A stretch of 64,000 bases of DNA from Planktothrix pseudagardhii (GTDB lineage: Bacteria; Cyanobacteriota; Cyanobacteriia; Cyanobacteriales; Microcoleaceae). The notes beneath the pieces were generated by a model, which saw only the letters and a program-made list of their open reading frames with translations, was not told where the DNA came from and made no database searches. The translations under genes and the position numbers were made by a program. Positions 13,041 to 30,616 of this stretch are shown here, in pieces (position 1 is the stretch's first letter; each line of letters begins with the position of its first letter). Location: contig NZ_LR882967.1 of the NCBI RefSeq assembly GCF_904830925.1, forward strand, positions 3,298,106 through 3,362,105, given 5' to 3'.

Positions 13041-13129
13041 TTATTTTAGAGTGTTGTCGCAATTACCAACCTTAGATAGATTTTAATTCCACTCAATTTG
13101 ACTAACATCAGTAACGACGCATGAGTTCA

Positions 13130-14785: not shown

Positions 14786-14830
14786 GAAATAATTGTATAT
14801 CAGAGATAAAATTCATTAGTTATTATTAAT

Positions 14831-15295
14831 GTGACTGAAAAAGCCTATGAATCCGTTACTTTTGGAGAAGCCGGCACAGGAGTGCTAGAGATTCCAAAAG
14901 TAGCGATAGAGGGCATTTGGAGATTTTCGGAGATGTCTAGTGGTGAAAGTGATCAAGTTGCATTAGCGGAAATCGGGGACTGGTTGAAGCGATGGCTAGA
15001 GGCTGTGAATATTTCTCTAACCGATAAAACCCAGTTCGAGGAAGCAACGCGCCATTTACAGTTCGCCATCTTGGTGACAGTGTTAGCGAATCGGTTAAGC
15101 TTTGTGCTTGACCACCTCAGTGCTTTAATGCGATCGCAGGTGATCGACTTTCACGACACTAGCTTATCCCTGGTCAATCGCCCACCACGAGACTATTTAG
15201 CCATTGTCCCTTCGTCACCAGTGGGCAATATCCTCGGCTTTCGATATACCAGCGATCGCCGCCTGCTGGGCAGTTATAATGATGGAAGGAGTTAG
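14831..15295 (+). CDS. Hypothetical protein, possibly a fragment.
   Basis: This is an ORF only. I recognise no motif. It lies in the IS/fragment-rich region. Confidence 0.25.
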   Translation: MTEKAYESVTFGEAGTGVLEIPKVAIEGIWRFSEMSSGESDQVALAEIGDWLKRWLEAVNISLTDKTQFEEATRHLQFAILVTVLANRLSFVLDHLSALMRSQVIDFHDTSLSLVNRPPRDYLAIVPSSPVGNILGFRYTSDRRLLGSYNDGRS

Positions 15296-15647
15296 CATTC
15301 TCGCCCTAGTTTTTTCGCCGTTAGTCATCGGAATATTCAGTAACGACACTGAAGTCATAGCAACCACTACTACCATTCTGCGTATTCATATTTTTTACCA
15401 AGCTGGCGATGCTATTTTTATGATTTACCGAGCCGCTTTGGTGGGATTAAATGATACTTTTTATGTGCGAAATATTAGTTTATTAGGCGGTTGGTTTGTA
15501 ATGATACCTGTTTCATTATTACTAACAAGCGTTATGTCTTTCGGCGTAGTAGGGGCTTGGCTTAAACTAACCCTTAATGTGTTAATCAGTGCGATATTCT
15601 ACGCAGGACGTTTTCACTTTAAATTGAGAGATAGAATAAACAATTGA
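15290..15647 (+). pseudogene. C-terminal fragment of a MATE-family efflux transporter gene.
   Basis: ...ILALVFSPLVIGIFSNDTEVIATTTTILRIHIFYQAGDAIFMIYRAALVGLNDTFYVRNISLLGGWFVMIPVSLLL... matches the last TM helices of NorM/DinF-type MATE proteins. The N-terminal two-thirds are absent. Confidence 0.6.
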
Positions 15648-15880
15648 GAAAAGTTAAAAACTGATTTTGATGTATTTTTACAAATCCTCTTTAATGTTTA
15701 TTTAAGCCGCGGGAAATTGGAATCTATTCAAAATGATAAACTGGTTGTTCAATGTCATACAATGTTCGGGATGATAACGTACCAACTTCTCAATCAGATT
15801 ATCAAATCGGTTCATACCCGGTTTTAAGGCAGAACGAGATAAACGATATAATGGCATCGGGACAGGAACCCCCTTCAAAT

Positions 15881-16999
15881 TCAGGGCTGTTTCATTTTCC
15901 CAAATTGGGGAGTCAAATTGAGTCCCCAATTTTTAGGAATGAGGCGAAAAAGTTGTCCTTCTGTTATTGATACAAAACCCCAACTTCTGAAAAGATTGAT
16001 TACCAGAGTTTTAAGAGTTGAAAAGTTGCTAGCTGCTTGAAAGTTACGAATTCGGCTTTTATCTTCTTGAAAAATTACATCTTTTACCCAATGGTATTGA
16101 TTCTCAATCCCCCAATGTCCTTTAATGATTTGAGCTAAGGTTTGAGCTTCGTTAACGGCACTACTGATATAATATACTTTTTCTTGATAGGGTTTTTTTC
16201 CTCTGTTGCCACTTCTTTCTATCTGAATCACAAGTTTCAGATGTTTCCAGCCTTTGTGAAAGTTGTTATTGACTTGATAAATGGAAACTTTTCGAGTCAC
16301 TTTTCTGCCATGGCTGTGTTCATGAGTCACATCTACACTCACAGGATTTTCACTTTTTATTACCGCTTCAACTTGCTCATATAACTTTTTTTGATTTTTC
16401 TTTAAAGCCATTATATAATCATTCCCGCTCTCAATAACTAGGGCAGCAGTTTTCTGATTACAGTGCAACGCATCAAAGGTTATTACTTTTCTTTTTAACT
16501 GGCAATCCCTTACTATCTTTTGGGCTTGGCTGATTTCTGATTCTTTTTTGTTCTCCATCTTTCTCAGGTTTAATACGCATCCTGTTCTTTGACTAAACAG
16601 TGCAACAATCATCACAAAATTTTGGGATTTATCTCCAAAATCTTTGAGAGTGCTTCTCAGGCTTTTTCCATCTACTGCTAACCAATCTAGTTCTTCTTGA
16701 TGCGGATAATTACAAGTAGCCCATTCATTAAATATCTCAATTAAATTTAACCAATCTACTCCTTGTATTACTCTTCTTATTGTTGAGTATGATGGCAGTT
16801 TTTCTAGCTTGATTTTTAAAACTTGACTCAGTTGGTATTGATTGATTTTCGCAAAATTTTCGAGTTCTCTGTACCCTAAATTTCTCGACATTAGCCCCAA
16901 AATGACTATTAATAATACTAGCCATATTGGATGCCTTGTTCCCTGGGCTTTCCGGTAATCCTTGACTTTTTTCAGTTTTTCTATTAGAGTTGTTAGCAT
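15881..16999 (-). CDS. ISAs1-family transposase (H-repeat-associated, DDE_Tnp_1 with N-terminal DDE_Tnp_1_assoc domain).
   Basis: The N-terminus KDYRKAQGTRHPIWLVLLIVILGLMSRNLGYRELENFAKIN is the ISAs1-associated domain. The DDE core includes ...LAVDGKSLRS...ITFDALHCNQK...HWGIENQYHWVKDVIFQEDKSR. Confidence 0.8.
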   Translation of the reverse strand: MLTTLIEKLKKVKDYRKAQGTRHPIWLVLLIVILGLMSRNLGYRELENFAKINQYQLSQVLKIKLEKLPSYSTIRRVIQGVDWLNLIEIFNEWATCNYPHQEELDWLAVDGKSLRSTLKDFGDKSQNFVMIVALFSQRTGCVLNLRKMENKKESEISQAQKIVRDCQLKRKVITFDALHCNQKTAALVIESGNDYIMALKKNQKKLYEQVEAVIKSENPVSVDVTHEHSHGRKVTRKVSIYQVNNNFHKGWKHLKLVIQIERSGNRGKKPYQEKVYYISSAVNEAQTLAQIIKGHWGIENQYHWVKDVIFQEDKSRIRNFQAASNFSTLKTLVINLFRSWGFVSITEGQLFRLIPKNWGLNLTPQFGKMKQP

Positions 17000-17253
17000 C
17001 TTTATTTTTACAAAAAAATCAGCGACCGCTTTTGATTTTATCAGCTAGCAATCGCTATTTCTTTACTCTTTTCCCCCCGACTTTGAAACAGCCCTGGTTC
17101 AAGTCGGGGGTGATGCCTGTTATGAAAATTATGGAGGGTGTGAGCATTTCCTCTCTAGCAGAGCTAATGCTAGAGCAATGGGCATTGGCTCTGCTCCAGT
17201 CAGCATCCCCATCCACTGAACTCGATGACAGTATGGAGGAAATCGCTCTATGA
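16990..17253 (+). pseudogene. Probable 3' remnant of an upstream biosynthetic gene cut off by the ISAs1 insertion. Its stop overlaps the NRPS start codon (ATGA).
   Basis: The ORF ends ...SISSLAELMLEQWALALLQSASPSTELDDSMEEIAL. Its TGA overlaps the ATG of the NRPS at 17250-17253. Its 5' part runs into the ISAs1 element, so only the last 65 or so codons can be native. Confidence 0.3.
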
Positions 17254-20200
17254 ACCTTAAGCAATTTGTAGCTGAACTCGCCCTAGCTGGTGTGAAGTTG
17301 TGGGTCGAAGACGACCAGTTGCGCGTGCGGGCACCAAAGAAGGTACTGACACCAGAGGTACGTAATTTATTGGCATTGCATAAGGCAGAACTTGTAAAGT
17401 TGCTACAGAACAGCAATGCGATCGCCAATGATACTGACCTACCCCTTCTAAGAGTTTCGCGAACTGGTAACTTGCCTCTGTCTTTTGCCCAAGAAGGACT
17501 GTGGTTCTTGAGCCAGTTGGAGCCAACTAACCCCTTCTACAACGTACCACTAGCTCTGCGACTTAATGGTTCTCTCAACGTTGTCGCTTTAGAGAAAAGC
17601 CTCAACAAGATAATTCAACGCCACGAGGTCTTACGCACCAACTTCACAACGGTTGAGGGGCAACCCGTTCAGGTTATTGCTCTTGGCTTGACCTTGAGTG
17701 TGCAAGTCATAGATTTGAGTGAGCTACCTGAGAGTGAAAGAGAAATTGCTTGGGGGCTAAAAGCCAGGGCACAAATCCAGCAACCCTTTGACCTCAGTAG
17801 CTCTGGGTTGATTCAAGCTTCTGTGCTAAAGCTAACACCGACAGAACATATCTTGTTACTAACAATACATCACATTGTCTGGGATGCTCCTTCAGAGGGC
17901 GTATTGGTCAAGGAGTTAGCAGCTTTCTACACAGCCTACTGCAATGACTTGCTACCAGAGCTACCAGAGCTACCGATTCAGTACGCCGACTTTGCTGTTT
18001 GGCAGCGGCAGTGGTTACAGGAAGACATACTAGAGTCTCAACTTGCTTATTGGAAGCAACAACTGTCTGGTGCGCCAGAAATATTGGAACTGCCAACTGA
18101 CCGAGTGCGAAAAGCAACTCAAACGTTTCGAGGGGCGTGTCACCGACAAGCACTCTCAAAAGAACTAACAGAGGCTTTGATGATTTTAAGTCAACGCAAA
18201 GGAGTTACTCTGTTTATGACGCTGTTGGCGGCGCTCTTCACATTGCTTTACCGTTATACAGAGCAGACCGATATTTGCGTAGGCACGCCTTACGCAGGCC
18301 GGGAGCGCCGTGAGCTTCAGGGATTGATTGGATTGTTTCTCAATACGTTGGTTCTGCGGACTGATATATCAGGTAATCCGAGTTTTGAGGAGCTACTCTC
18401 AAGAGTCCGGGACGTGGCTTTGGGAGCATACGCTCATCATGACCTACCGTTTGAAAAGTTATTAGAACAATTGCAGCCAGCGCGTAACTTAAGCTACACA
18501 CCGTATTTCCAAGTGAGGTTTGTGCTTTACCCAGCGATGCAGATAGACATGGAAGGCTTAACGGTGAGTCCAGTAGCGGTAGAAACAGCTACGGCGAAGT
18601 TGGATTTGTTTGTAGCTTTCGTCAACAGCGACTCTGGACTAATCGGGACGTGGGAATACAATACTGACTTGTTTGATGCCAGTACGATCAATCGCATGGC
18701 TCAACATTTTCAGACCTTACTAGAGGGAATTGTTGCTAATCCTCAACAGAAGGTTTCAGAATTGCCATTGCTCACAGAGCCAGAGCGACACCAGCTATTA
18801 GTAGAGTGGAACAACGCCACAAAAGAGTATCCCTTCAATAAGTGTATCCACCAGTTATTTGAGGAACAGGTGGAGCGATCGCCTGATGCTATTGCGGTGG
18901 TTTTTGAAGGGGAGCAACTGACCTACCAAGATTTGAACCAACGGGCGAACAGAATAGCACATCACTTGAAAACTCTAGGTGTGGAGCCAGAAGTGCTGGT
19001 GGGCATCTACGTTGATCGCTCCTTAGAGATGGTAGTGAGTCTACTTGGCATCCTCAAAACTGGAGGGGCTTATGTGCCTTTAGACCCATCCTATCCCAAA
19101 GAGCGCTTAGCGTTCATGTTGCAAAATTCACAACCAAAGGTGTTGTTGACTCAGGAGTGCTTGATAACAGAACTGCCTGAACATACGGCACAAGTTGTTT
19201 GCTTAGATACAGATAGGCATCTCATTGCTCAACACTCAGAAGAAAATTTAAACCAAACAGCAACAGTTGCTAATTTAGCCTATGTCATTTATACCTCTGG
19301 CTCAACGGGAAAGCCAAAGGGAGTACAGGTGACACACGCTAATTTGTGTCACTATGCCCAAGCAATGAGTCAAGTGCTAAATATCACAGCAGAAGATGTA
19401 TATTTGCACACCGCATCGATTGCTTTCTCATCTTCTGTCAGACAGTTGATCGTGCCTCTGGCTAGTGGGGCAACTGTCAAAATTGCAACTTCTGAACAGA
19501 GAAAAGACCCACAATCACTATTTACGACAATTAAACAACATAGTGTGACAGTTATTGATATTGTCCCCTCTTATTGGCGTAACTGCATTCATACACTTGC
19601 TAGCTTAGAACCTGTTACGAAACAAGCACTGTTAGATAACAAACTGCGTTTAATTGTGTCGGCGAGCGAACCGCTGCTGTCCGATCTTCCTACTCAGTGG
19701 ACGTTTGGTTTTCAGCACAAAGCACGATTAATCAATATGTTTGGTCAAACTGAAACTTGTGGAATTGTTGCCACTTATCCAATTCCGGCACAACAGGATG
19801 AGCCAATCAAAATTGTCCCTATCGGTCGCCCGATCACCAACACACAAATTTATCTGCTCGACTGCCATCTGCAACCAGTCCCTGTTGGTGTACCTGGGGA
19901 AGTGCATATTGGTGGTTTTGGACTGGCGCGAGGCTACCTCAACAGCCCAGAATTGACAAAAGAAAAATTCATCCCCAACCCCTTTAGCCAAGAAGAAGGA
20001 ACACGCCTCTACAAAACCGGGGACAATGCCCGCTACCTTCCAGACGGTAACATTGAGTTCCTTGGTCGGCTGGATCGTCAAGTGAAGATTCGCGGTTTCC
20101 GTATTGAACTCGGAGAAATCGAAGCAGCGCTAGCTCAACACCCAGAGGTACGGGAGACAGTAGTTTTAGCAAGGGATGACCAACCAGATAACAAACGACT

Positions 20201-21503
20201 GGTAGCTTATGTTGTTCCCAACCATGAACCTCCTGCCACCATTGAACTGCGGCACTTCCTCCAACAAAAGCTCCCAGACTACATGGTGCCGGGAGCCTTT
20301 GTGATGCTTTCTTCTTTACCTCTCACCCCCAATGGTAAGGTAGACCGTCGCGCCTTGGAGACACCAGATACGGAATTAAGTAACTCAATGGGCTTTGTCC
20401 CTCCCCGTGACACAGTTGAACAGCAACTACAGCAAATTTGGTCAGAGGTTTTGAAGCTTCCGACTGTTGGAATGAAGGATAACTTCTTTACTTTCGGAGG
20501 TCATTCTCTTTTAGCTGTACTCTTAATGGCTCAAATTTCGCGGCATTTTGGGAAAAATCTGCCCATAGCAACGCTTTTCTCTAGCCCAACTATCGAACAG
20601 CTAGCTAGTTGTCTTCGATCCGAAACTCATTCCTTGCCTTGGTCTCCTTTGGTAGCAATTCAGTCTGGCACCGAGAAGCGACCTTTCTTCTTTGTGCCTG
20701 GAGTTGGGGGAAATGTGATTTACTTATATGAGCTAGCGCGTCATCTTGGATCTGAGCAACCCTTCTACGGTCTGCAAGCACGGGGACTGGATGGCGAATC
20801 AGAGCCTTTTACACAGTTGGAAGAGATAGCCACCTACTATATTGAAGCAATACAGACAGTTCAGCCCTCTGGTCCGTACCTGCTGGGAGGGCATTCGTTT
20901 GGAGGTGTAGTTGCCTTTGAGATGGCAACTCAGTTGCTCAAACAGGGGCATGAGGTCGCTCTACTTGCAATTATTGACGTTGTTGCGCCAATTGTTGCTA
21001 ATAAGCCGAATTATTCTGATGAAGATGAGGTGGCATATCTTTTTGATTTTGCCAGCTATATTGAATATATGTTCTCCCTCAAGTTGGAGGTATCTAAAGA
21101 AACTCTTGCTTCCCTATCTCAGGAGGAGCAATTGAACTATCTCAAAGAACGGTTGATACGGGTCAATTTGCTACCCCCTGATGCGGGAATAGGGTTAGTA
21201 CGGGGGCTAGTGCAAGTATACATTGCGTCCCTGAAAGCTCATCGTGCTTATTTGCCTTCGGGGCTGCAACAAGCTCCCATTACTCTTTTCCGTTCTAGTG
21301 AGGTTGATGTATTTGAGGGTGATACAGAAGAGTTGAAACAAAGGCGAAAAGAACCTGCTTTGGGCTGGAACGAGTTTTCTTCTACTATAGACATTCATGT
21401 TGTTCCAGGGAACCATAGCACCATGATGCAACAGCCGCACGTACAGGTGTTAGCCACACAACTTCTCTCTTGCCTAAAGCAAACACAGGCTCCATTGGCT
21501 TAG
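17250..21503 (+). CDS. Single-module nonribosomal peptide synthetase: N-terminal TubC-type docking domain, then C, A, T (PCP) and TE domains.
   Basis: Docking domain: MNLKQFVAELALAGVKLWVEDDQLRVRAPKKVLTPEVRNLLALHKAELVKLL. C domain: HHIVWDA motif near 17868. A domain: A3 LAYVIYTSGSTGKPKGV near 19290, A5 NMFGQTE, A7 YKTGDNARY, A8 GRLDRQVKIRGFRIELGEIE, A10 PNGKVDRRAL. T domain: FFTFGGHSLLAV, Ser near 20503. TE: GGHSFGG near 20889, with a C-terminal GNHSTMM His. Confidence 0.85.
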   Translation: MNLKQFVAELALAGVKLWVEDDQLRVRAPKKVLTPEVRNLLALHKAELVKLLQNSNAIANDTDLPLLRVSRTGNLPLSFAQEGLWFLSQLEPTNPFYNVPLALRLNGSLNVVALEKSLNKIIQRHEVLRTNFTTVEGQPVQVIALGLTLSVQVIDLSELPESEREIAWGLKARAQIQQPFDLSSSGLIQASVLKLTPTEHILLLTIHHIVWDAPSEGVLVKELAAFYTAYCNDLLPELPELPIQYADFAVWQRQWLQEDILESQLAYWKQQLSGAPEILELPTDRVRKATQTFRGACHRQALSKELTEALMILSQRKGVTLFMTLLAALFTLLYRYTEQTDICVGTPYAGRERRELQGLIGLFLNTLVLRTDISGNPSFEELLSRVRDVALGAYAHHDLPFEKLLEQLQPARNLSYTPYFQVRFVLYPAMQIDMEGLTVSPVAVETATAKLDLFVAFVNSDSGLIGTWEYNTDLFDASTINRMAQHFQTLLEGIVANPQQKVSELPLLTEPERHQLLVEWNNATKEYPFNKCIHQLFEEQVERSPDAIAVVFEGEQLTYQDLNQRANRIAHHLKTLGVEPEVLVGIYVDRSLEMVVSLLGILKTGGAYVPLDPSYPKERLAFMLQNSQPKVLLTQECLITELPEHTAQVVCLDTDRHLIAQHSEENLNQTATVANLAYVIYTSGSTGKPKGVQVTHANLCHYAQAMSQVLNITAEDVYLHTASIAFSSSVRQLIVPLASGATVKIATSEQRKDPQSLFTTIKQHSVTVIDIVPSYWRNCIHTLASLEPVTKQALLDNKLRLIVSASEPLLSDLPTQWTFGFQHKARLINMFGQTETCGIVATYPIPAQQDEPIKIVPIGRPITNTQIYLLDCHLQPVPVGVPGEVHIGGFGLARGYLNSPELTKEKFIPNPFSQEEGTRLYKTGDNARYLPDGNIEFLGRLDRQVKIRGFRIELGEIEAALAQHPEVRETVVLARDDQPDNKRLVAYVVPNHEPPATIELRHFLQQKLPDYMVPGAFVMLSSLPLTPNGKVDRRALETPDTELSNSMGFVPPRDTVEQQLQQIWSEVLKLPTVGMKDNFFTFGGHSLLAVLLMAQISRHFGKNLPIATLFSSPTIEQLASCLRSETHSLPWSPLVAIQSGTEKRPFFFVPGVGGNVIYLYELARHLGSEQPFYGLQARGLDGESEPFTQLEEIATYYIEAIQTVQPSGPYLLGGHSFGGVVAFEMATQLLKQGHEVALLAIIDVVAPIVANKPNYSDEDEVAYLFDFASYIEYMFSLKLEVSKETLASLSQEEQLNYLKERLIRVNLLPPDAGIGLVRGLVQVYIASLKAHRAYLPSGLQQAPITLFRSSEVDVFEGDTEELKQRRKEPALGWNEFSSTIDIHVVPGNHSTMMQQPHVQVLATQLLSCLKQTQAPLA

Positions 21504-21577
21504 TAATTGGTCTGTTAAGTGGAAATTTTTGAGGTAATTAACAAGCTCTTTCATTTGACTAAAAAAGCTCAATCATT

Positions 21578-22549
21578 ATGAAAATAGGAATTTTCGACTC
21601 GAATCACAATCTACCCTTGCTAGTAGAACCTGACACAAAACGCGAATCGTCTAATTTTGATTATCTCCTTTCATGGTACAAAGATAATAGTGAACTTTTA
21701 TCAAACAAAATTTTGAAACACGGAGCGATTCTTTTTCGAGGTTTTGATGTCAATACAATCTTAGCTTTTGAAAAATTCGTTAAATCTATTTCAGGTAATT
21801 TAATAGATTATGTTGATGGAAATTCTCCCCGAACCCAACTAGCTAGTGGTATTTATACTTCAACTGAATATCCAGCTGAATACTCCATTAGTTTGCATAA
21901 TGAGTTATCCTACTCTAGCCAATGGCCAGACCAACTCTATTTTTGCTGTATTACTGCGCCTAAAGAGGGCGGAGAAACACCAATTGCTGATAGTCGCCAA
22001 ATCCTCAAAAGTCTTAACCCAAAGATTGTGGAAAAGTTCACACTTAAACAAGTGAAGTATATCCGCAATTTACCTAGTAGTAATGGCATGGGAGTTTCAT
22101 GGCAAGATGCTTTTAAAACTTCAGATAAGTCCCTAGTAGAAGAGCATAATAGAAAAGCTGGTATGGATTTTGAGTGGAAGAAGGATGGAGGATTGCGATT
22201 AAGCCAGATTCGTCCTGCTATTGCAACTCATCCTCGTACAGATGAACAAGTTTGGTTTAATCAAGCCGATCTATTTCATCCATCTACTCTTCCTAAAAAT
22301 ATCTACGAAGCTATGATGTTTTATTTTGACGGTAACGAAGAGGAACTCCCTCACTATGCTTGCTTTGGCGACAATACTCCAATTGATGTTTCAATGCTAG
22401 ATGAAATTAGAGAAACTATTGGTAAACAAACTGTTGTTTTTCCTTGGCGGGAGGGTGATGTTCTAGTCATAGATAATATGTTAGTTTGTCATGGACGAAG
22501 ACCGTTTTTTGGTTCGAGAAAAATTTTGATTTCTATGTCACAATTCTGA
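21578..22549 (+). CDS. Fe(II)/2-oxoglutarate-dependent oxygenase of the TauD/clavaminate-synthase-like family. Probably an amino-acid beta-hydroxylase (VioC/AsnO/SyrP-like).
   Basis: The HxE facial triad start (SLHNELSY) and the C-terminal DNMLVCHGRRPF (second His plus 2OG-binding Arg) are typical of the CAS-like branch of PF02668. The gene sits between NRPS genes. Confidence 0.7.
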   Translation: MKIGIFDSNHNLPLLVEPDTKRESSNFDYLLSWYKDNSELLSNKILKHGAILFRGFDVNTILAFEKFVKSISGNLIDYVDGNSPRTQLASGIYTSTEYPAEYSISLHNELSYSSQWPDQLYFCCITAPKEGGETPIADSRQILKSLNPKIVEKFTLKQVKYIRNLPSSNGMGVSWQDAFKTSDKSLVEEHNRKAGMDFEWKKDGGLRLSQIRPAIATHPRTDEQVWFNQADLFHPSTLPKNIYEAMMFYFDGNEEELPHYACFGDNTPIDVSMLDEIRETIGKQTVVFPWREGDVLVIDNMLVCHGRRPFFGSRKILISMSQF

Positions 22550-22574
22550 TTATCTTAGCTATAAGTGTAAGTAG

Positions 22575-24356
22575 ATGTATCAATTCCAAGAGTCTCTTCC
22601 AAAACTACCTTTGCCCAAACTCTCAGACACCTGCGCTCGTTATATCGAGATGGTAACACCGCTGTTGAGTGACACAGAATTAGAGCGAACTAAGACCGCC
22701 GTAAGGGAATTTCAACAAGGGAGTGGAGTCGAACTACAGAAGCAATTGGAGATGATTGACCGCTCAACTAATACTAACTATTTACAACAATTTAAAGAGG
22801 AAACCTATTTAGAAATGCGGTCTTCACAACTAAATATGAGAAGCACAGGGGTGGCTTCGCCCGTCTTGACAACCTCGAAATATTCCTTTACCCGCATTGT
22901 CGCCATCATAATTTTTAATACCCTCCAATTCCACCTGAAAATCAAATATCGGGAACTAGAGCCAGATCGCGATGTATTTCAACGAAACAAACCTCCCCTT
23001 TGTATGGCTCAGTATGACAATTTGTTTGGCAGTGCGCGAATTCCTGGAATCAAATGTGACAGCTTTCAAAGGGCGAAAAATTCTGAGCATATTGTGGTCA
23101 TCCGACGGGATACGTTTTACGTCTTAAAGTTGCTCCCAGGGGATACGTTACCGTCGGTGGAAGCTGTAGCACAGCAAATTGATTGGATTCTGGAAAATAC
23201 TCATCCAGGGGAACTTCCTGTGGGAGTGCTGACATCTCTCCCCAGAGAACAGTGGGCAACAGTTCGCTCCTACCTCACGAACCTAGATGCAGAAAACGCT
23301 TGCTCTCTAGAACTATTGGATAGCGCCTTATTTGTTGTCTGTTTAGACGAAATAACGCCTCCCGATTTGGAAAGGCTAGCAAGAACTGCCTTTACTGGAG
23401 ATGGTGGGCGAAACCGATGGTTCGATAAACCTATTCGGCTCGTTTTTAACTCTGAGGGTCAGTTCGCTGTAACAATTGAACACAGTAATGTCGATGGTTA
23501 TCCGGTAGCACGGTTGATAAGCGAGGTCAACCGGGAGCTTGAACCCCTTGAAGAATCCCTTACATCCTCCAGTTCAGTCGAACTCGAACCCCCACAGCGA
23601 CTGTGGTGGAAATTAGACCAGAAACTCCGAGAAGAAGTAGCTCAAGCATTAACAGATGCAGAGTGTCTGAGCGAACAAATTCAGATGGGGATAATAATTT
23701 TCGACGAATTTGGGTCAGACTTTATCCAGCAACATGGTTTAATTGCTGATGCTGTGTTTCTCCTGTCGCTACAGATTGCTTACACTCGCCTGCATGGTAA
23801 GATTACTACTAGCGCTTGGCAAGCTGTACACAACAGAACCTTCCGGTACGGGCGGCACGACTACGCCTTAGTAGTTACACCCGAATCTGTAGAACTCATT
23901 CAAGCCTTTACTGAGGGAGCTTCAGACGAAGTGCGATATCGGACTCTAAAACGTGCTGTTAACGCTCATTTATGGCGAGTGTTTAACACTAAAAACGGGC
24001 AGGGAGTGGTCATGCACCTTTATGCGCTTTATAACTTAGCTCGCTATAAAGGCAGCAGTGTTCTCGATATTTTTCAAGATAAAACCTTTGAAGAAGTTAT
24101 CTTAGACCCAAGCTTCTCCGCTTCTGCCCTAAGTAATAAAATGGGTGTAGAGATAGCCTGCCCCAGTCCATGTCGCGACTATGGAATCGGCTATGTCATC
24201 GATCGCAACAAGATTACCTTTGCTGTAACGAGTAAACATCTACAGCCGGAAGATTTCATCGCTCTTGTCAAGCAGTGTCTTTCAGAAATCGGAAAATTGT
24301 TAATAGAGCAACGACACCCAGATTCCAATATAAGAATACATTCATCACCACAATGA
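22575..24356 (+). CDS. Choline/carnitine O-acyltransferase family protein (593 aa).
   Basis: The N-terminal LPKLPLPKLSDTCARYIEMVTPLL matches the conserved LPxLPVPxLxxTLxxYL start of carnitine acyltransferases. The catalytic-His region TIEHSNVDGYPVARL matches the EHSxxDG motif. Length fits the family. Confidence 0.7.
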   Translation: MYQFQESLPKLPLPKLSDTCARYIEMVTPLLSDTELERTKTAVREFQQGSGVELQKQLEMIDRSTNTNYLQQFKEETYLEMRSSQLNMRSTGVASPVLTTSKYSFTRIVAIIIFNTLQFHLKIKYRELEPDRDVFQRNKPPLCMAQYDNLFGSARIPGIKCDSFQRAKNSEHIVVIRRDTFYVLKLLPGDTLPSVEAVAQQIDWILENTHPGELPVGVLTSLPREQWATVRSYLTNLDAENACSLELLDSALFVVCLDEITPPDLERLARTAFTGDGGRNRWFDKPIRLVFNSEGQFAVTIEHSNVDGYPVARLISEVNRELEPLEESLTSSSSVELEPPQRLWWKLDQKLREEVAQALTDAECLSEQIQMGIIIFDEFGSDFIQQHGLIADAVFLLSLQIAYTRLHGKITTSAWQAVHNRTFRYGRHDYALVVTPESVELIQAFTEGASDEVRYRTLKRAVNAHLWRVFNTKNGQGVVMHLYALYNLARYKGSSVLDIFQDKTFEEVILDPSFSASALSNKMGVEIACPSPCRDYGIGYVIDRNKITFAVTSKHLQPEDFIALVKQCLSEIGKLLIEQRHPDSNIRIHSSPQ

Positions 24357-24366
24357 GCTTTGAAAA

Positions 24367-25512
24367 ATGGACTTTTCATGGACAGAGGAACAAATTCAGT
24401 TTAGAGAGAAGATTGTTAAATTCGCCCAACAAGAGTTGCAATCAAATCTAATTGACCTAGATTGGCGAGAAGAATTTAACCGAGAAAGTTGGGAAAAATG
24501 TGGGAAATTTGGTCTGATCGGTCTGCCAATTCCTGAACATTATGGGGGAACTGGGACAGATATTCTTACAACGATTTGTGCCTTGGAAGCTTTAGGTTAT
24601 GGTTGTAAAGACAATGGTCTAATCTTTGCCATCAACGCTCATATATGGGCTGGCGAAATACCGATTTTAACCTTTGGCACCGAAGCTCAAAAACAAAAGT
24701 ATCTCCCCAAACTCTGTAGCGGTGAATTCATTGGCGCTCATGGGGCAAGTGAACCAGAAGCAGGTTCGGATATTTACAATCTTAAGACTACTGCCAAAAT
24801 ACAGGGAGACAAGTACATCTTAAATGGTGTTAAGAATTGGGTCACAAATGGTCCAGTTGCTGACCTTTACATTGTATTTGCGAATGTCGCTCCCGAAAAA
24901 GGAAAACGGGGAATTACTGGATTTATCGTCGAAAAAGATTTTGCCGGAGTCGCGATCAATCGTAAAATTTCCAAAATGGGTTTAAGAACGACTCAGTTAG
25001 GTGAACTGTTCCTAGAAAATTGTGAAGTGCCGAGTGAAAATCGTCTTGGTCAAGAGGGTTCGGGACTTGCTATCTTTAATCACAGTATGGAATGGGAGCG
25101 AGGATTCATTCTTGCCAGTGCGATCGGGACTATGGAACGTCTGTTAGAAAGCTGCATTCAATATGCTAGGAAGCGCCAGCAATTTGGTCAATCGATTGGA
25201 AAATTTCAGTTAGTTAGCAGCAAAATTGTTGACATGAAGATGCGACTTGAAACAGCTAGAGCGCTGCTGTATAAAGTAGGATGGTTAAAAAATAATAAAA
25301 AAACGGCGATTATGGAAGCGGCAATGGCAAAACTTTATATTAGTGAATCTTGGGTGCAGTCCTGCCTTGATGCAATTCAGATTCATGGTGGTTATGGCTA
25401 TCTAACTGAGTTAGAACTAGAACGAGAATTAAGGGATGCGTTAGGGAGCAAGCTTTATTCAGGAACCTCTGAGATTCAGTACCAAATAATTGCCCAATTT
25501 ATGGGATTATAG
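24367..25512 (+). CDS. Acyl-CoA dehydrogenase-family flavoprotein. Predicted carrier-protein-tethered prolyl oxidase (PltE/RedW/CloN3/AnaB-like).
   Basis: It has the ACAD fold (MDFSWTEEQ..., GASEPEAGSD, C-terminal ...QIHGGYGY...). It is 381 aa, sits immediately upstream of a stand-alone A domain and a stand-alone PCP, and the stops and starts are closely spaced. Confidence 0.75.
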   Translation: MDFSWTEEQIQFREKIVKFAQQELQSNLIDLDWREEFNRESWEKCGKFGLIGLPIPEHYGGTGTDILTTICALEALGYGCKDNGLIFAINAHIWAGEIPILTFGTEAQKQKYLPKLCSGEFIGAHGASEPEAGSDIYNLKTTAKIQGDKYILNGVKNWVTNGPVADLYIVFANVAPEKGKRGITGFIVEKDFAGVAINRKISKMGLRTTQLGELFLENCEVPSENRLGQEGSGLAIFNHSMEWERGFILASAIGTMERLLESCIQYARKRQQFGQSIGKFQLVSSKIVDMKMRLETARALLYKVGWLKNNKKTAIMEAAMAKLYISESWVQSCLDAIQIHGGYGYLTELELERELRDALGSKLYSGTSEIQYQIIAQFMGL

Positions 25513-25624
25513 AGGGTGATTTTTTGTTTACGCGAGAGCATTTGCGAGATTACGAGACAACGCTGCGGCGCGCTACGAAGAATTGGTACGAATTCATCTC
25601 GCTGTATTATCGTTTGAACATTCT

Positions 25625-27244
25625 ATGGAAGACAGCCCAAAACCCATGCCGTATCTACTGCAACAGCTTTTAGAAATTAGTGCCAAGCAATATCCAGACC
25701 GGGAAGCTGTAATCTATAAAAATAGCAGCATCACGTATCGGGAGTTAGACCAAGTTTCTAATCAGTTAGCCCACCTCTTGATAAGTTGCGGGATATCAAG
25801 AGGCGATCGCGTCGGCATTTACGTGAACAAATCCATTGAAGCAGTCATTGCCATTTTCGGTATCCTTAAAGCTGGATCTGTCTACGTTCCCCTAGACCCC
25901 TTAGCTCCTGCGAAGCGGATAGGCTTTATCATTGACAATTGCCAGATGAAGGCTTTGGTGAGTACCCATAAAAAGATAGCCAGCCTTCAACTGCCAAACA
26001 CCTCTGGTGTCCAGTGCCTGGTACTCGCTGACGATGAAGCACAACAGGACACGGGTAATCTGTCAAATGTCAGGATGGTGTCTTGGCAAGAGGTGTTGCA
26101 AGCACCGCCAAACCCATCACCACCCAGCAATTTGATTGAAGACGATCTTGCCTACATTCTCTACACATCCGGCTCCACTGGCACTCCCAAAGGGGTGATG
26201 ATTAGCCATCGAGCTTCTCTAACCTTTGTCAACTGGGCTTATGATTGCTTTCAGGTACAAAGGAGCGATCGCGTTTCCAATCACGCCCCACTTCATTTCG
26301 ATCTTTCCATCTTTGATATCTTCACCACTATCAAAGCAGGTGCGACTGTCATTCTGGTACCACCGGAACTCTCAGTGTTTCCCAGAAACCTCGCTCAGTT
26401 TATTGAAGAACAACAAATTACCATCTGGTATTCTGTCCCTTCAGTGCTGAGACAGCTAATTGTTTACGGCAACCTGCATCAGGCTCAATTTCCCCATATT
26501 CGGACGATTTTGTTTGCGGGGGAAGTGTTCCCAGTTAAATACCTGCGTCAACTTATGGAGTTGCTACCGCAAGCCAACTACTATAATCTCTACGGACCCA
26601 CAGAAACAAATGTCTGTACTTACTATCCGGTAAAGGAAATTCCTCCTGAAGAGGTAAGAACTCTGCCCATTGGCAAAGCTTGTGCCAACACAGAGGTATT
26701 TGCCGTCAATGAACACAAAGAAATTACCAAACCAGGAGAAGTTGGGGAACTTTACGTGCGTAGCCCCTCCTTAATGAAAGGATACTGGGGAAATCATGAC
26801 AAAACCCAACAGGCTCTCACACCTTTCCCCGTACCAGGTTGCGGATGGTTAGAAAAAGTTTACCGAACTGGGGATTTAGTGAAACTCAATTCTGATGGCA
26901 ACTATATTTATTTAGGTCGTCGCGATAACCAGATTAAGAGCCGAGGATACCGAATTGAACTGGATGAAATTGAAACGACGCTATACGCTCATCCTGCAAT
27001 TGTTGAAGCAGCCGTAATTGCTATTCCCGATGAGGAAATCGGCAAGAAAATCAAGGCTATAATTGCCACACAGGATGGAAATAATCTCAAAAAGAGCGAT
27101 GTAGAATATTTTTGTGCACAGCGTCTACCTAAATACATGATACCGGAGCTAATTGAGTTTCGTTCTGGGTTACCTAAAACCCCTACAGGCAAGATTGACA
27201 AAACCTTACTGCGTACCGAAGAACTTCAAGAGAATTCAAAATAG
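25625..27244 (+). CDS. Free-standing adenylation enzyme (amino-acid adenylation domain). Predicted L-proline activating (PltF/RedM/CloN4/AnaC-like).
   Basis: Core motifs: YTSGSTGTPKGV (A3), FDLSIFDIF (A4, Asp present), NLYGPTETNV (A5), YRTGDLVKL (A7), GRRDNQIKSRGYRIELDEIE (A8), PKTPTGKIDK (A10). The hand-aligned specificity residues are about D-L-F-Y-L-A-L-V-C-K. The ATG at 25625 is preferred over the TTG at 25583. Confidence 0.75.
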   Translation: MEDSPKPMPYLLQQLLEISAKQYPDREAVIYKNSSITYRELDQVSNQLAHLLISCGISRGDRVGIYVNKSIEAVIAIFGILKAGSVYVPLDPLAPAKRIGFIIDNCQMKALVSTHKKIASLQLPNTSGVQCLVLADDEAQQDTGNLSNVRMVSWQEVLQAPPNPSPPSNLIEDDLAYILYTSGSTGTPKGVMISHRASLTFVNWAYDCFQVQRSDRVSNHAPLHFDLSIFDIFTTIKAGATVILVPPELSVFPRNLAQFIEEQQITIWYSVPSVLRQLIVYGNLHQAQFPHIRTILFAGEVFPVKYLRQLMELLPQANYYNLYGPTETNVCTYYPVKEIPPEEVRTLPIGKACANTEVFAVNEHKEITKPGEVGELYVRSPSLMKGYWGNHDKTQQALTPFPVPGCGWLEKVYRTGDLVKLNSDGNYIYLGRRDNQIKSRGYRIELDEIETTLYAHPAIVEAAVIAIPDEEIGKKIKAIIATQDGNNLKKSDVEYFCAQRLPKYMIPELIEFRSGLPKTPTGKIDKTLLRTEELQENSK

Positions 27245-27263
27245 TTCAATAAGGAGATTGATA

Positions 27264-27533
27264 ATGACCGCCGTAAACAAGTACACGGAAGCACAGATAG
27301 AACAGATAATTAAAGAGCATATTGTCCAAAATTTCATGTACGATAGACCCGATATGGTTTTATCAAATGATTTGTCCATAATCGAAGAAGGACTGGTTGA
27401 CTCGCTGGGCATTTTTCGACTGGCTAGCTTTCTGGAAGAAAAGTTTGGTATTACCTTAAATCCAGAAGAATTCTTACTGGAGAATTTTGAAACAGTTAAC
27501 GTTATCAAATCTTTCGTTATCAGCAGACTGTAA
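27264..27533 (+). CDS. Free-standing peptidyl/acyl carrier protein (89 aa).
   Basis: The phosphopantetheine attachment motif is EEGLVDSLGIFRL. A strong RBS AAGGAG lies 8 nt upstream of the ATG. The gene directly follows the A enzyme. Confidence 0.75.
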   Translation: MTAVNKYTEAQIEQIIKEHIVQNFMYDRPDMVLSNDLSIIEEGLVDSLGIFRLASFLEEKFGITLNPEEFLLENFETVNVIKSFVISRL

Positions 27534-27647
27534 CAGTTGTTGCTGCCAATTTCTAACTACCTGCTAGGTTAGATTTTTACAGGCTACGCCATCAAAATCT
27601 ACTTTGACCAAATTAGCTGAAGTTTTAAACAGGCAAACGTTGACGGC

Positions 27648-29015
27648 TCAACCTATGCGTGAATCAGGCAGTTGCTCGGCGACAACCAGAGGTTCATCTT
27701 TCAATGTTCCGGACACCTGCACCGCAAGCACTACCACTCTTATTGCTGCGAACATTGATAGAGCCAACCATAAGAGATGATTGCTCTGATAATGCCATGC
27801 CATGACTGCTAAGGGCGCAAATCCAAACATTGCTCCGCTTAAAGTAGCGTTACGTATAAAATGCCCTTGGGCTAAACCTGCAAAGTATCCATCCAGTATC
27901 ATAGCAATTGAACTAAATCCCAGTCTGGAGAGTAGCCAAGAAACATAGATTTTAACAAGTTCCTTCACTTCACTATGATTGGTTAATAACCCAAAGACTG
28001 TATTCGGGAACAGGATAGACACTCCAGAACAAATTAATGCCGCCAGTAGGCTGGTTGAGACTGCCACCTGCAATAGGGGCAACAATCGATCTATTGTTTG
28101 TTTGCCTTTAAAATTTCCACCCAAAGTCTCGGTAGCAAATCCTATTCCTTCAAAAAAGTAACTGGAAAGCATTATTACTTGTAAGAGTAAGGCATTTTCA
28201 GCCAGGATAGTTGTCCCCATTGCAGAACTTAGAGCCGTGAAAAAGGTGGCGACGAACATATTAGCCGAAGACCTGATAAAGAGATTGCCGTTCAGGGTAA
28301 AAGTCGCTTTAAATGCGCTGGCATCCCAAAACTTTCTGGCTGCACTTCGAGCTTCCTTCCACTCGATATTGAGACTCGCCAAAATTATGCCTACTACTAA
28401 CACCAGATACTGGCTAATTGCCTGAGACAGTCCCGCCCCCGTGCTTGCCCAGTCCCAACGGACAATAAACAGGTAGTCGAACACAACATTAGCTGCATTG
28501 CCTACTAGGGTCATCAGCAACACAAAGCCACTCATTTCTCGTCCGAGAAACCACCCAATCAGAACAAAATTGACGACAACCGCAGGCGCTCCCCAAATTC
28601 GGGCATTGAAATAGTCAATACCTGAAGCCTTAACCTCTGGAGTCACGCTCATTAGACCAAACCACAACTGTTGCAGAGGATATTGCAACAACAGAAGCAG
28701 TCCGCCTATACCCAGTCCGATTAAAGCATTACGCAGTCCCACCAGCAGCATATCTTCGGTGTCATCCCGTCCCACCGCTTGCGCTGTCACTCCAGTGGTT
28801 CCCATGCGTAAAAAGTTCACAATGAAATAGGTGAAGTTAAACAGAGTGGTAGAGAGAGTAACCCCTGCTAAGTGATGGATTTCGGTTAGATGGCCCAGGA
28901 ACGCTAAGCTGATTGTCCCAGCCAGAGGCTCCATAATATTGGACAGGACATTGATGAAAGCTAGTCTAAAGAAGCGAGAAAGGAAGTCGTACCTATTTGG
29001 GAGTGTTATGTTCAT
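27648..29015 (-). CDS. MATE-family efflux transporter, a putative exporter of the cluster product.
   Basis: It has 12 predicted TM helices. The N-terminus ...INVLSNIMEPLAGTISLAFLGHL is typical of NorM/DinF MATE proteins. It is convergent with the biosynthetic genes. Confidence 0.7.
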   Translation of the reverse strand: MNITLPNRYDFLSRFFRLAFINVLSNIMEPLAGTISLAFLGHLTEIHHLAGVTLSTTLFNFTYFIVNFLRMGTTGVTAQAVGRDDTEDMLLVGLRNALIGLGIGGLLLLLQYPLQQLWFGLMSVTPEVKASGIDYFNARIWGAPAVVVNFVLIGWFLGREMSGFVLLMTLVGNAANVVFDYLFIVRWDWASTGAGLSQAISQYLVLVVGIILASLNIEWKEARSAARKFWDASAFKATFTLNGNLFIRSSANMFVATFFTALSSAMGTTILAENALLLQVIMLSSYFFEGIGFATETLGGNFKGKQTIDRLLPLLQVAVSTSLLAALICSGVSILFPNTVFGLLTNHSEVKELVKIYVSWLLSRLGFSSIAMILDGYFAGLAQGHFIRNATLSGAMFGFAPLAVMAWHYQSNHLLWLALSMFAAIRVVVLAVQVSGTLKDEPLVVAEQLPDSRIG

Positions 29016-29039
29016 GGATTTAGGTTCTCCTGTACCTAT

Positions 29040-29600
29040 GGTGATAAGTAAATCTTATAAAGAAAGACAAGCTAGTAGCTTTTCACGCATCATCTCAAAA
29101 TTTTTGAAGCCATAGCTTTGACGAAGAATTAATTTGATCCGGTTGTTTAATCCCTCCATGACTCCACTGGTTGTTCGATTAATAAAATAATGGCAAATAT
29201 CGGGAAGATGGTGTTTAAGAGTTTGGGCGGCTGACGGGGTGACAAAGAAGCTAGAAGGTAGACTGAATCAACATCATAGCTCTCTGACCTCTTTGAAAAA
29301 AAGGGATCTTATTGCATTTAGTTCTCATTAATTGTTGAGCCAAGTCTGCCCAAATTTCCATTCCAGCTATCCATAAAAGCCCATATTGACAAGACCAAAA
29401 GTTGCTGTGCCGTTGAACACTCCGCCCTAATTCTTGAAGGCGGTTGATATATTTTTGTTGCCCAAGTTGTTTGATTTTTAATCCTTGTAAGGCTTTTATG
29501 GTATAAGCGATGGCGCTAGCCGCGCCTGCTGGCGCATCGCTATCAATAAAACCAGACGGGTTAAGCGTCGCCCCTACGATGCACGGTAATTATTGTCACA
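29040..29600 (-). mobile_element. Degraded ISL3-family transposase remnant with no intact ORF.
   Basis: The minus-strand translation near 29050-29240 gives ...HLPDICHYFINRTTSGVMEGLNNRIKLILRQSYGFKNFEMMREKLLACL. This matches the conserved ISL3 transposase C-terminus (..EGxNNKIKxxKRxxYGFRNFxxFRxRIL..). Upstream coding is interrupted by stops. Confidence 0.5.
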
Positions 29601-29620
29601 ATTGATTTAGACTGACTATA

Positions 29621-30616
29621 TCAACCTAAAACTTTTTCTAAAGCTTGCTGAAGAACCTCTACCCCAGCACCCGGAAGATGGGCATTTTCACTAATATATC
29701 GTTTCCAAGCTTTTGTTCCCGGTTGTCCAGCAAAAAGTTCTAATAAATGGCGAGTAATACTATTCAATTTTACCCCTTTTTGTAACCAATATTCAAGATA
29801 AGGATACATCGCTTCTATGACTTCTCGGCGAGTGAGGGGGGGTGTTTTTTCTCCATAGATTTCTTGATCAGCTATTGCAAATAAATAGGGGTGATCATAA
29901 GCAGCACGTCCTATCATAACTGCATCCACAAATTGCAATTGTTCTTTGACTTCTGTTAAGGTTTTAAACCCCCCATTAATTTCAATCAATAAATGGGGAA
30001 ATTCTTGTTTTAATTGATGTACTTCTTGATAGCGTAATGGGGGAATGGTGCGGTTTTCTTTCGGACTTAAACCCTGTAACCAAGCTTTGCGAGCATGAAC
30101 GGTAAAATGTTGACATCCGGCTTCAGAAACAATTCTAACAAAATCCGCCATATCTTCATAACGATCCCGATCATCAATGCCAATTCGATGCTTAACGGTG
30201 ACAGGAATTTGAACAACTTTTTGCATCGCTTTTATGGCTTGTGCAACTAATTCTGGTTGCGCCATTAAACAAGCCCCAAAATTGCCATTTTGAACGCGAT
30301 CACTGGGACAGCCTACGTTTAAATTAACCTGATCATATCCCCAATCTTCTGCTATTTTAGCGCAGGTCGCAAGATGATGAGGATGATCTCCTCCTAACTG
30401 TAAAACTAAGGGTTTTTCTTCAGGAGAAAAGCTCAATAATTTTTCATGATCTCCATGCAAAATCGCTGCGGTTGTCACCATTTCCGTATAAAGTAACGTT
30501 CGCCGGGTGATTTGTCGCATAAAATAACGATAATGGCGATCAGTGCGATCCATCATGGGAGCAATACTGAGGGGATAGCTTTGATTTAAGGTTGAAATTG
30601 ATCTCAGATTGTTCAT
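29621..30616 (-). CDS. dusA: tRNA-dihydrouridine synthase A.
   Basis: ...LSIAPMMDRTDRHYRYFMRQITRRTLLYTEMVTTAAILHGD... matches DusA (FSVAPMLDWTDRHCRYF...TEMVTT). The catalytic Cys lies in NVGCPSD. The start is probably the internal ATG near 30616 rather than the overlapping upstream start. Confidence 0.8.
   Translation of the reverse strand: MNNLRSISTLNQSYPLSIAPMMDRTDRHYRYFMRQITRRTLLYTEMVTTAAILHGDHEKLLSFSPEEKPLVLQLGGDHPHHLATCAKIAEDWGYDQVNLNVGCPSDRVQNGNFGACLMAQPELVAQAIKAMQKVVQIPVTVKHRIGIDDRDRYEDMADFVRIVSEAGCQHFTVHARKAWLQGLSPKENRTIPPLRYQEVHQLKQEFPHLLIEINGGFKTLTEVKEQLQFVDAVMIGRAAYDHPYLFAIADQEIYGEKTPPLTRREVIEAMYPYLEYWLQKGVKLNSITRHLLELFAGQPGTKAWKRYISENAHLPGAGVEVLQQALEKVLG

Follow-up and report, generated by a model that had tools for sequence, protein, structure and literature searches.

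The stretch of DNA analysed here, 64 kb from Planktothrix pseudagardhii No713 (the strain in Entfellner et al. 2022, PMC9366434) and referred to at its full length as the window, carries a biosynthetic locus of the nonribosomal peptide synthetase (NRPS) type at positions 17250-29015. Six intact genes were found on the forward strand, and a seventh, encoding a MATE efflux transporter, converges on them. With moderate confidence, the locus was interpreted as a horizontally acquired mosaic, reduced from a larger hybrid pathway of NRPS and polyketide synthase (PKS) enzymes, and not as a compact pathway built for its purpose.

The first gene (17250-21503, forward strand) encodes an NRPS of 1417 aa with the domain order dock-C-A-T-TE, in which Pfam recognised TubC_N, Condensation, AMP-binding, PP-binding and Thioesterase. 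The following genes on the same strand encode a TauD-family Fe(II)/2-oxoglutarate oxygenase (21578-22549; Pfam TauD, 5e-40; PDB match At3g21360, 3e-42), a protein with the carnitine/choline-acyltransferase fold, termed CrAT-like below (22575-24356; Pfam Carn_acyltransf, 1e-134 and 450.7 bits over the full length), an L-prolyl-carrier-protein dehydrogenase of the AnaB/PltE/PigA type (24367-25512; Pfam ACAD), a stand-alone Pro-type adenylation (A) enzyme (25646-27244, with alternative starts at 25625 and 25583; recognised by Pfam) and a stand-alone peptidyl carrier protein (PCP) of 89 aa (27264-27533; Pfam PP-binding, with its serine in the motif GLVDSLGI). The transporter gene (27648-29015; Pfam MatE) lies on the reverse strand. 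Gaps between the co-directional genes range from -4 to 133 bp, and a single Condensation domain was detected by Pfam in the whole window. The G+C content of the cluster was 0.442, compared to 0.393 in the adjacent chromosome and a window average of 0.415.

An earlier note on this DNA had described these genes and domains at the same positions, with short or overlapping gaps and one condensation domain, and the list of open reading frames (ORFs) and the Pfam searches agreed with it on these points. Its count of eight co-directional genes is reached only when the 3' end of a PKS gene and a halogenase fragment are added to the six intact genes. Taken as a whole, its description of the locus was largely correct.

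Remnants of a probable larger pathway

Scanning of a genome collection with the CrAT-like protein led to Microcoleus sp. D2_18a_B4 (contig L001). By blastn, one block of 7170 bp with 93% identity connected window positions 17114-24282 with L001 4545-11708. This block starts 136 bp 5' of the start codon of the window NRPS gene, and in Microcoleus the NRPS orthologue (92% amino acid identity) overlaps, through the sequence ATGA, the 3' end of a gene for a type I PKS. In the sister strain Microcoleus sp. B9-D4 (L035), the PKS is complete (KS-AT-DH-cMT-KR-ACP, 2203 aa) and its gene is preceded by one for an NRPS of 932 aa with a C domain cut off ahead of the His motif. This arrangement, (truncated C)-A-T / KS-AT-DH-cMT-KR-ACP / dock-C-A-T-TE / TauD / CrAT-like / methyltransferase, is referred to as type B.

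Alignment of the window to L001 showed that the last 45 codons of this PKS gene and its stop codon remain at 17116-17253 (forward strand), in frame and with the ATGA overlap retained. The remnant encodes PVMKIMEGVSISSLAELMLEQWALALLQSASPSTELDDSMEEIAL; it reads PVMKIMEGVSISSLAE...MEEIAL, matches the C-terminus of the Microcoleus PKS, and comprises the C-terminal part of the ACP together with a docking tail, ...ELDDSMEEIAL*. It differs from L001 4545-4684 by 9 mismatches in 140 nt. The homology to the Microcoleus PKS ends abruptly at 17114, at a hairpin with a 10-bp stem (CCCCCGACTT..AAGTCGGGGG, 17074-17110, no strand, read off the sequence) that may be the end of an insertion sequence (IS). Beside it, a transposase gene (15881-16999, reverse strand; Pfam DDE_Tnp_1 and DDE_Tnp_1_assoc) abuts the truncation point, and this gene was found in P. 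tepida PCC 9214 as well.

Beyond the 45-codon remnant, no upstream donor or PKS partner for the TubC_N dock was found in the 64-kb window, and no close Planktothrix orthologue of the Microcoleus PKS appeared among the top 120 database matches. Because the homology block runs into the 3' end of a PKS gene whose remainder has been removed, the dock and the C domain of the NRPS belong to a PKS-to-NRPS interface.

The second remnant was recognised from the metagenome contig L015, which was reached through a database search with the dehydrogenase. This contig carries a halopyrrole cluster, referred to as type A, in the order C-A-T-KS-AT-DH-KR-ACP-TE (3190 aa) / CrAT-like / dehydrogenase / methyltransferase / PltA-type halogenase / A / PCP / convergent MATE. 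Identities between the window and L015 were 94% for the dehydrogenase, 91% for the A enzyme, 92% for the PCP and 80% for the MATE protein, whose gene is split in L015, and the CrAT-like and dehydrogenase genes are spaced by 10 bp in both. The window contains neither the methyltransferase gene nor most of the halogenase gene. A 100-bp in-frame scar is left, which in the alignment to L015 is a pyrrolyl halogenase remnant of 33 codons (25527-25625, forward strand; 97 of 100 nt identical to L015 13056-13155) encoding FTREHLRDYETTLRRATKNWYEFISLYYRLNIL, about residues 355-387 of the 456-aa L015 halogenase.

PDB matches of the L015 halogenase were Mpy16 (5BUK, 1e-171), PltA (7e-166) and also ChlB4 (range 1e-166 to 1e-171), enzymes that chlorinate pyrrolyl-S-carrier proteins. 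An intact FADH2-dependent halogenase is absent from the window and present in the relatives L015, L017 and L020; the methyltransferase and the halogenase have been deleted from the cassette of the window. The divergence of the two scars from their relatives (9/140 and 3/100) was not above that of the intact genes. The losses are therefore recent, and for this reason the intact ORFs say little about function.

L017 (4537-14138) and L020 (559-14158) represent another uncharacterised type of halopyrrole cluster, with dehydrogenases 84-86% identical to that of the window. They contain a dehydrogenase, a halogenase, an A enzyme, a second halogenase, a PCP, a free-standing C domain and a DUF3179 protein, and no CrAT-like gene. 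An OpuAC betaine-binding protein is additionally encoded in L017, and the cluster of L020 borders on a gene for an ABC-transporter ATPase.

The closest relative of the window switches from Microcoleus to L015 at about 24200-24290, over the final ~100 bp of the CrAT-like gene. Measured in sliding windows of 100 bp, identities of the gene up to ~24200 were 0.88-0.95 to Microcoleus and mostly 0.70-0.87 to L015, while after ~24200 the values were 0.4-0.5 and 0.90, respectively. At the switch itself, near 24250, identity to Microcoleus dropped from 0.93 to 0.4-0.5 and identity to L015 increased from 0.73-0.83 to 0.90. Downstream of its CrAT-like gene, Microcoleus has an unrelated methyltransferase gene followed by an ISL3 transposase gene. 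The possibility that this methyltransferase (after the CrAT-like gene) and that of L015 (after the dehydrogenase gene) are the same gene was rejected, as the two are not homologous; the view of the Microcoleus cluster as a simple deletion derivative was consequently rejected too.

No pyrrolyl cassette (dehydrogenase, A enzyme and PCP) was found in the region of L035 that was read, from ~10 kb upstream of the PKS gene to the ISL3 transposase gene downstream. Microcoleus is both cassette-less and truncated in its starter C domain, which fits pyrrolyl-S-PCP as the donor of that C domain. Whichever direction the recombination took, the cluster family is a mosaic, with each intact half joined to a multimodular synthase. 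Genes for an aminotransferase, a guanidinoacetate-N-methyltransferase-like protein and a DHDPS-family protein precede the intact type B cluster of Microcoleus sp. B9-D4 (L035 1703-9970); upstream there are also 1.7 kb in which no gene was called.

Predicted functions of the surviving genes

The dehydrogenase, A enzyme and PCP had been read in the earlier note as a proline-oxidising cassette, and this assignment was borne out by the database matches and the A-enzyme code. The best stand-alone PDB match of the A enzyme was PltF (6O6E, L-proline--carrier-protein ligase, 3.3e-105), and its code is DLFYLALVCK, which we take to specify proline; the literature searched for Pro code strings gave no match. 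The dehydrogenase matched AnaB (PDB 4IRN) at 1.1e-176 and 590 bits, and the NCBIfam models PigA and RedW at 447 and 400 bits, each under its own equivalog cutoff. A protein identical to it is named L-prolyl-[PCP] dehydrogenase at NCBI.

All dehydrogenase relatives with a readable context (L015, L017 and L020; 84-94% identity) stand beside PltA-type halogenases. On account of this adjacency, full oxidation to pyrrole-2-carbonyl-S-PCP is favoured over the two-electron outcome of AnaB. Judged from these relationships, the conversion of Pro to pyrrolyl-S-PCP is probably still carried out in Planktothrix.

AnaB being the best solved relative of the dehydrogenase, the block of dehydrogenase, A enzyme, PCP and MATE genes was also considered as the remnant of an anatoxin-a (ana) cluster stripped of its PKS genes. 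The convergent MATE gene would suit this origin, since ana clusters include a MATE gene. However, the closer relatives of the dehydrogenase (84-94% identity, compared to roughly 70% to AnaB) adjoin PltA-type halogenases and not ana PKS genes, the window carries a halogenase scar, and homologues of anaA, anaE-G and the cyclase were not found in the window. The ana origin was rejected on the halopyrrole-cluster relatives and the scar, and we give it hardly any credence. The MATE gene scored 654 bits against the NCBIfam model of the guanitoxin transporter GntT (NF041358; equivalog cutoff 525), and no gnt biosynthetic genes were found in the 64-kb window; we take the protein only for a MATE exporter closely related to GntT, and the model probably captures exporters of other cyanobacterial alkaloid-type clusters too.

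In the NRPS, the motifs HHIVWDA (C), YTSGSTGKPKG and YKTGD (A), FGGHSL (T) and GHSFG (TE) were identified, of which HHIVWDA is a Gly-to-Ala variant common to the intact Microcoleus orthologue. The code of the in-line A domain was SSRDVAMGIK in both the window and Microcoleus, with FSSSVRQ in place of FDASVWE and loss of the conserved Asp235. The GrsA reference used for reading the code reproduces the published GrsA code DAWTIAAICK. PDB matches of this domain were generic NRPS A domains. The substrate predicted from the code, which the earlier note had taken as the acceptor residue, is not an ordinary alpha-amino acid; malate-like, beta- or gamma-amino, betaine-type and guanidino acids were considered as candidates. 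Because Asp235 is lacking, the acceptor possibly has no alpha-amino nucleophile.

Alignment of the TauD protein to At3g21360 identified the Fe(II) facial triad H107-N-E109 and H305, together with the 2-oxoglutarate-binding Arg, R307 in VCHGRRPF. Metagenomic homologues with 85-88% identity adjoin modules with the Asp code DLTKVGHVGK, one of which is 61% identical to the window NRPS. Because of this neighbourhood, the protein is placed, as a prediction, in a carrier-dependent beta-hydroxylase lineage, with a partner module that would here have a changed pocket.

The CrAT-like protein is identical to WP_254174000.1 and matched PF00755 over profile positions 1-568 of 574. Full-length PDB matches to mammalian CrAT, CPT2 and choline acetyltransferase structures (1NDB, 2H4T, 2FY2) ranged from 1e-50 to 1e-56. 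The catalytic His is kept in the motif EHSxxDG (IEHSNVDG, aligned with the eukaryotic YEHSxAEG), as is the S-x-S motif. In contrast, Tyr452, Ser454, Thr465 and Arg518 of mouse CrAT, presumably the ligands of the carnitine carboxylate, are replaced by W, A, H and M in the subclade of the window protein, and Lys419 and Lys423, which we take to bind the 3'-phosphate of coenzyme A (CoA), are Ser and Gln in the window protein. A true carnitine or choline acyltransferase was rejected, since the carnitine-binding residues are replaced, and the loss of the lysines suggests a phosphopantetheinyl-carrier donor rather than acyl-CoA.

About 57 homologues with at least 40% identity were found. Those with a named source are nearly all cyanobacterial, with one from Desulfonema, and eukaryotic enzymes are ~30% identical; the view that a gene of this kind is unusual for bacteria was upheld. 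All relatives with at least 56% identity and a readable context lie in thiotemplate clusters. The CrAT-like gene follows PKS/NRPS synthases in Microcoleus, L015 and L002, the last without a TE, and in Coleofasciculus (L024) it stands beside KS-AT, an HMG-CoA-synthase cassette and an ACP.

In Nostoc sp. CHAB 5844 (L003) and a further metagenome contig (L023), the gene directly follows an A-PCP pair among chorismate-derived amino-aryl genes. The neighbours (L003 983-18250, L023 312-15332) encode anthranilate/ADC-synthase-like, class IV aminotransferase, GNAT and HDAC-like deacetylase proteins, with chorismate mutase and vanadium haloperoxidase in addition in L023. In these two contigs, ~10 kb were read to either side of the CrAT-like gene without a C or TE domain being found, and within this distance no candidate for product release other than the CrAT-like protein is encoded.

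Fungal PKSs can carry fused carnitine-acyltransferase (cAT) domains, which release chains from the ACP by passing them to polyols and in which the His and Ser are kept (PMC10901484, PMC10512364). The literature searched yielded papers on fungal cAT domains only, and no account of a CrAT-like enzyme in a biosynthetic cluster of cyanobacteria or other bacteria.

A different use of the pyrrolyl group has to be weighed in this context, namely that the CrAT-like protein and not the C domain takes pyrrolyl-S-PCP and forms an ester on a hydroxyl group, for example one that TauD has introduced into the T-bound substrate or one of a cellular polyol, with the C domain remaining idle. The A-PCP pairs placed directly before the CrAT-like gene in Nostoc and L023, the 54% identity between the window PCP and that of Nostoc, the CrAT-like/dehydrogenase adjacency with its identical 10-bp gap in the window and L015, the lost CoA lysines and the fungal precedent are all consistent with such a role. 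In Microcoleus, however, the CrAT-like gene occurs without a pyrrolyl cassette in the region read, so in the closest relative the protein is not dependent on pyrrolyl-S-PCP. We consider this use of the enzyme improbable.

The Desulfonema magnum homologue (L037 7480-11716) directly follows genes for an SDR, an inositol-monophosphatase-family protein and a triose-phosphate isomerase, a context that hints at a polyol acceptor, by analogy with the fungal cAT domains. In the distant Rivularia/Calothrix clade, the carnitine-type binding residues are retained, and the function may be different. In Calothrix sp. CCY 0018 (L036 8856-11749), the gene stands beside that of a HalD/BesD-like Fe/2OG amino-acid halogenase/hydroxylase and not in a thiotemplate cluster.

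Occurrence in Planktothrix and flanking regions

Positions 15258-35512 of the window were 99.8% identical, with the same gene order, to P. tepida PCC 9214 in both of its assemblies and to four contigs from the environment. Synteny outside the strain, which the earlier note had proposed to check, was found for the complete gene set solely within this near-identical Planktothrix DNA (99.7-99.8%). The more distant relatives each carry only half of the gene set, joined to multimodular synthases.

In the available part of Pancrace et al. 2017 (PMC5259702), an orphan cluster of the NRPS class named PNL3, 11.3 kb in size and present among the compared strains only in PCC 9214, is described as having 'no significant similarity in databases'. 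The window locus is of the same class, its size fits, and it is 99.8% identical to PCC 9214 in this region; judged by strain, class and size, it is very likely PNL3. Gene content and coordinates, the truncation, the halogenase scar and the CrAT-like gene go unmentioned in that part of the paper. Neither a characterisation of PNL3 nor a published pathway for this gene set was found in the literature searched, in agreement with the earlier description of an NRPS-type cluster with an uncommon set of enzymes.

Between two Planktothrix genomes, 28 of 37 differences fell inside the six biosynthetic genes and the MATE gene. By a raw per-site count, 12 of these 28 were non-synonymous and 16 synonymous; four were at adjacent bases in NRPS codons 273-274. 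Between the near-identical Planktothrix copies, the cluster was about five times more divergent than the flanking chromosome. In the CrAT-like gene, the differences formed patches at 23591-23664 (codons 339-364) compared to PCC 9214 and at 23671-23723 (codons 366-383) compared to the environmental contig L011, which look like micro-recombination tracts in one surface region.

Transposase genes or remnants had been noted on both sides of the locus, and this was confirmed. Upstream, in addition to the gene that abuts the truncation point, a DDE_Tnp_4 transposase gene lies in an IS-rich zone (13865-14785, forward strand; Pfam DDE_Tnp_4, 6e-31, and HTH_Tnp_4). Downstream, a C-terminal remnant of an ISL3-family transposase of ~50 residues was found (29055-29267, reverse strand; PF01610, 3.9e-14, profile positions 188-238 of 240 only), beyond which the chromosomal genes for Dus, a VIT/VWA protein and LpxB follow. 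In the interval 13041-15257, the window is unlike the two PCC 9214 assemblies, which are also unlike each other, in IS content and in a gene called as 895 aa or 714 aa; this is either an IS-driven variable zone or an assembly problem.

A fragmented MATE pseudogene of two overlapping ORFs is located at 14831-15647 (forward strand; Pfam MatE fragment, 1.3e-6, in 15204-15647). A duplicate of the cluster MATE gene was ruled out, as tblastn showed no similarity between the two. Consensus scans for promoters and terminators across 15600-29700 gave fewer matches than in shuffled sequences and were therefore not informative.

Further upstream, a giant ORF (1662-11363, forward strand, 3233 aa) encodes FG-GAP, cadherin-like, Ig-like and RTX calcium-binding repeats, with a G+C content of up to 0.54 at 8-10 kb. 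Between it and the IS zone lie sulfotransferase-family and GNAT (Acetyltransf_3) genes (11440-13040, forward strand), which are kept in PCC 9214 and are apparently unrelated to the cluster.

Origin of the locus and comparison with known systems

The locus is a mosaic of a known kind of cluster, the pyrrole-primed NRPS/PKS type, recently reduced and with one component little known in bacteria. In the proposed ancestral pathway, the A enzyme would load L-proline on the PCP, and the AnaB-like flavoenzyme would oxidise it, most likely fully, to pyrrole-2-carbonyl-S-PCP. In the intact ancestors, (halo)pyrrolyl-S-PCP would have primed the starter C domain of an assembly line. The chain would then have been built by NRPS-PKS modules and, in one cluster type, by a further NRPS module with TauD. 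This terminal module would have added an unusual non-alpha-amino unit, hydroxylated on the carrier by TauD. The CrAT-like protein would have acted as a carrier-protein-dependent O-acyltransferase or offloading enzyme, finishing and releasing the chain together with the TE.

In Planktothrix, the chain-building modules are gone, and the ancestral product would no longer be made. Because the natural polyketide donor of the NRPS is gone, the locus, as judged from its gene content, is most likely silent or yields a truncated shunt product only, for example a conjugate of the pyrrole-2-carbonyl group or the module's own substrate in ester form. The self-contained compact pathway of the earlier note was not upheld, given a dock and C domain built for a polyketide, a PKS cut to 45 codons beside an IS element, and the deletion of the methyltransferase and the halogenase.

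Several observations weigh against a reduced relic. The catalytic motifs of all seven surviving genes are kept, and the scarred arrangement is present in two named Planktothrix species and four environmental assemblies, so that the reduced gene set may have been maintained for making a product. The ratio of non-synonymous to synonymous substitution rates (dN/dS) relative to the relatives was 0.06-0.19 for the pyrrolyl cassette and 0.29-0.45 for the NRPS, TauD and CrAT-like genes, in all cases below 1. Within the NRPS, the dock had the highest value (0.39, compared to 0.05-0.31 for the other domains); the selection data do not decide the matter of function. C-domain donor sites are generally tolerant, and for this reason a pyrrolyl-X product is possible. 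The working model of the CrAT-like protein as a carrier-protein-dependent O-acyltransferase or offloading enzyme is likewise a prediction, drawn from gene neighbourhoods, lost residues and the parallel with fungi.

The direction of change is a further point against the reduced relic. In a third lineage, P0002, the CrAT-like protein is 88% identical to that of the window; its body resembles that of Microcoleus and its tail that of L015. The recombination can be read in two directions, with Planktothrix as the recombinant or with Microcoleus having lost its right arm. Because P0002 shares the pattern of body and tail, the gene order to the right of the NRPS is possibly ancestral, and Microcoleus would then be the loser of the cassette.

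The retained motifs, the persistence in several Planktothrix genomes and assemblies and the dN/dS values, together with the tight gene spacing, would equally suit a working compact pathway of seven genes. Here, pyrrolyl- or dehydroprolyl-S-PCP would be the donor to the single C domain and the in-line A-T would provide the acceptor, with TauD hydroxylating, the CrAT-like protein acylating or offloading, the TE releasing and the MATE protein exporting the product. A precedent exists within the family, as the same cassette probably feeds the starter C domain in the type A relative. However, the C domain and TubC_N dock are orthologous (92%) to those of a module supplied with a polyketide by the ACP of a PKS, and the PCP has no docking tail like ...ELDDSMEEIAL; the donor would be non-cognate and would lack a docking partner. 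The PKS and halogenase scars mark the gene set as left over and not assembled, the A domain without Asp235 may leave the acceptor without its alpha-amino nucleophile, and the whole set is not conserved beyond near-identical DNA. A working compact pathway is judged unlikely on these grounds, and the reduced mosaic is preferred.

A broader proposal is that the stand-alone CrAT-fold proteins form an unrecognised bacterial thiotemplate class, a counterpart of the fungal cAT domains that would make esters of non-carnitine alcohols from carrier-bound (not CoA-bound) acyl or aroyl groups, and that the reduced Planktothrix locus would still make a new small ester or amide of pyrrole-2-carboxylate (or dehydroproline). 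Taken with both of its parts, it is put forward tentatively and considered rather doubtful.

For natural-product discovery, the reduced mosaic has a lower priority, as knockout or heterologous expression of the 12-kb Planktothrix locus would address the tail end of an assembly line. The intact cluster of Microcoleus B9-D4 (JAUBTS010000003.1, about 5.9-32.5 kb) and D2_18a_B4 and the type A halopyrrole cluster from the metagenome (L015; Ga0334949_000552) make better targets. The locus shows, as a clean and datable case, how cyanobacterial clusters are reshuffled by IS elements and by recombination within a tailoring gene that they share. The CrAT-like family is the most useful lead, its window subclade being embedded in carrier-protein pathways of several architectures. 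Should it prove true that these enzymes take their chains from carrier proteins, the engineering of bacterial NRPS and PKS systems would gain a new tool for release or esterification.

Among characterised systems, the cassette can be compared with PltF/PltL/PltE/PltA of pyoluteorin, Mpy16 of marinopyrrole and AnaC/AnaD/AnaB of anatoxin-a, with which it shares the stand-alone Pro A enzyme, the small PCP and the dehydrogenase of ACAD fold. In contrast to these cassettes, the halogenase of the window is reduced to a 33-codon scar, and neither a PKS nor a cognate starter C domain remains as an acceptor. The TauD protein resembles SyrP-type beta-hydroxylases in its fold, its H-x-E...H triad and the position of its gene directly after an NRPS module; its partner module has the code SSRDVAMGIK and not an Asp code, which occurs only beside homologues elsewhere.

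The CrAT-like protein has the fold and the EHSxxDG and S-x-S motifs in common with mammalian CrAT, CPT and ChAT (~30% identity), but it has neither their carnitine carboxylate ligands nor their CoA 3'-phosphate lysines and is not a carnitine enzyme. The nearest functional parallel may be the fungal cAT domains of highly reducing PKSs (Tv6-931; LtbA, PMC10901484), whose acceptors are non-carnitine polyols. Unlike these, the window protein is bacterial and stand-alone, is encoded beside NRPS and PCP genes and co-occurs with a TE; in both, a carnitine-acyltransferase fold with conserved catalytic His and Ser is found in a thiotemplate pathway.

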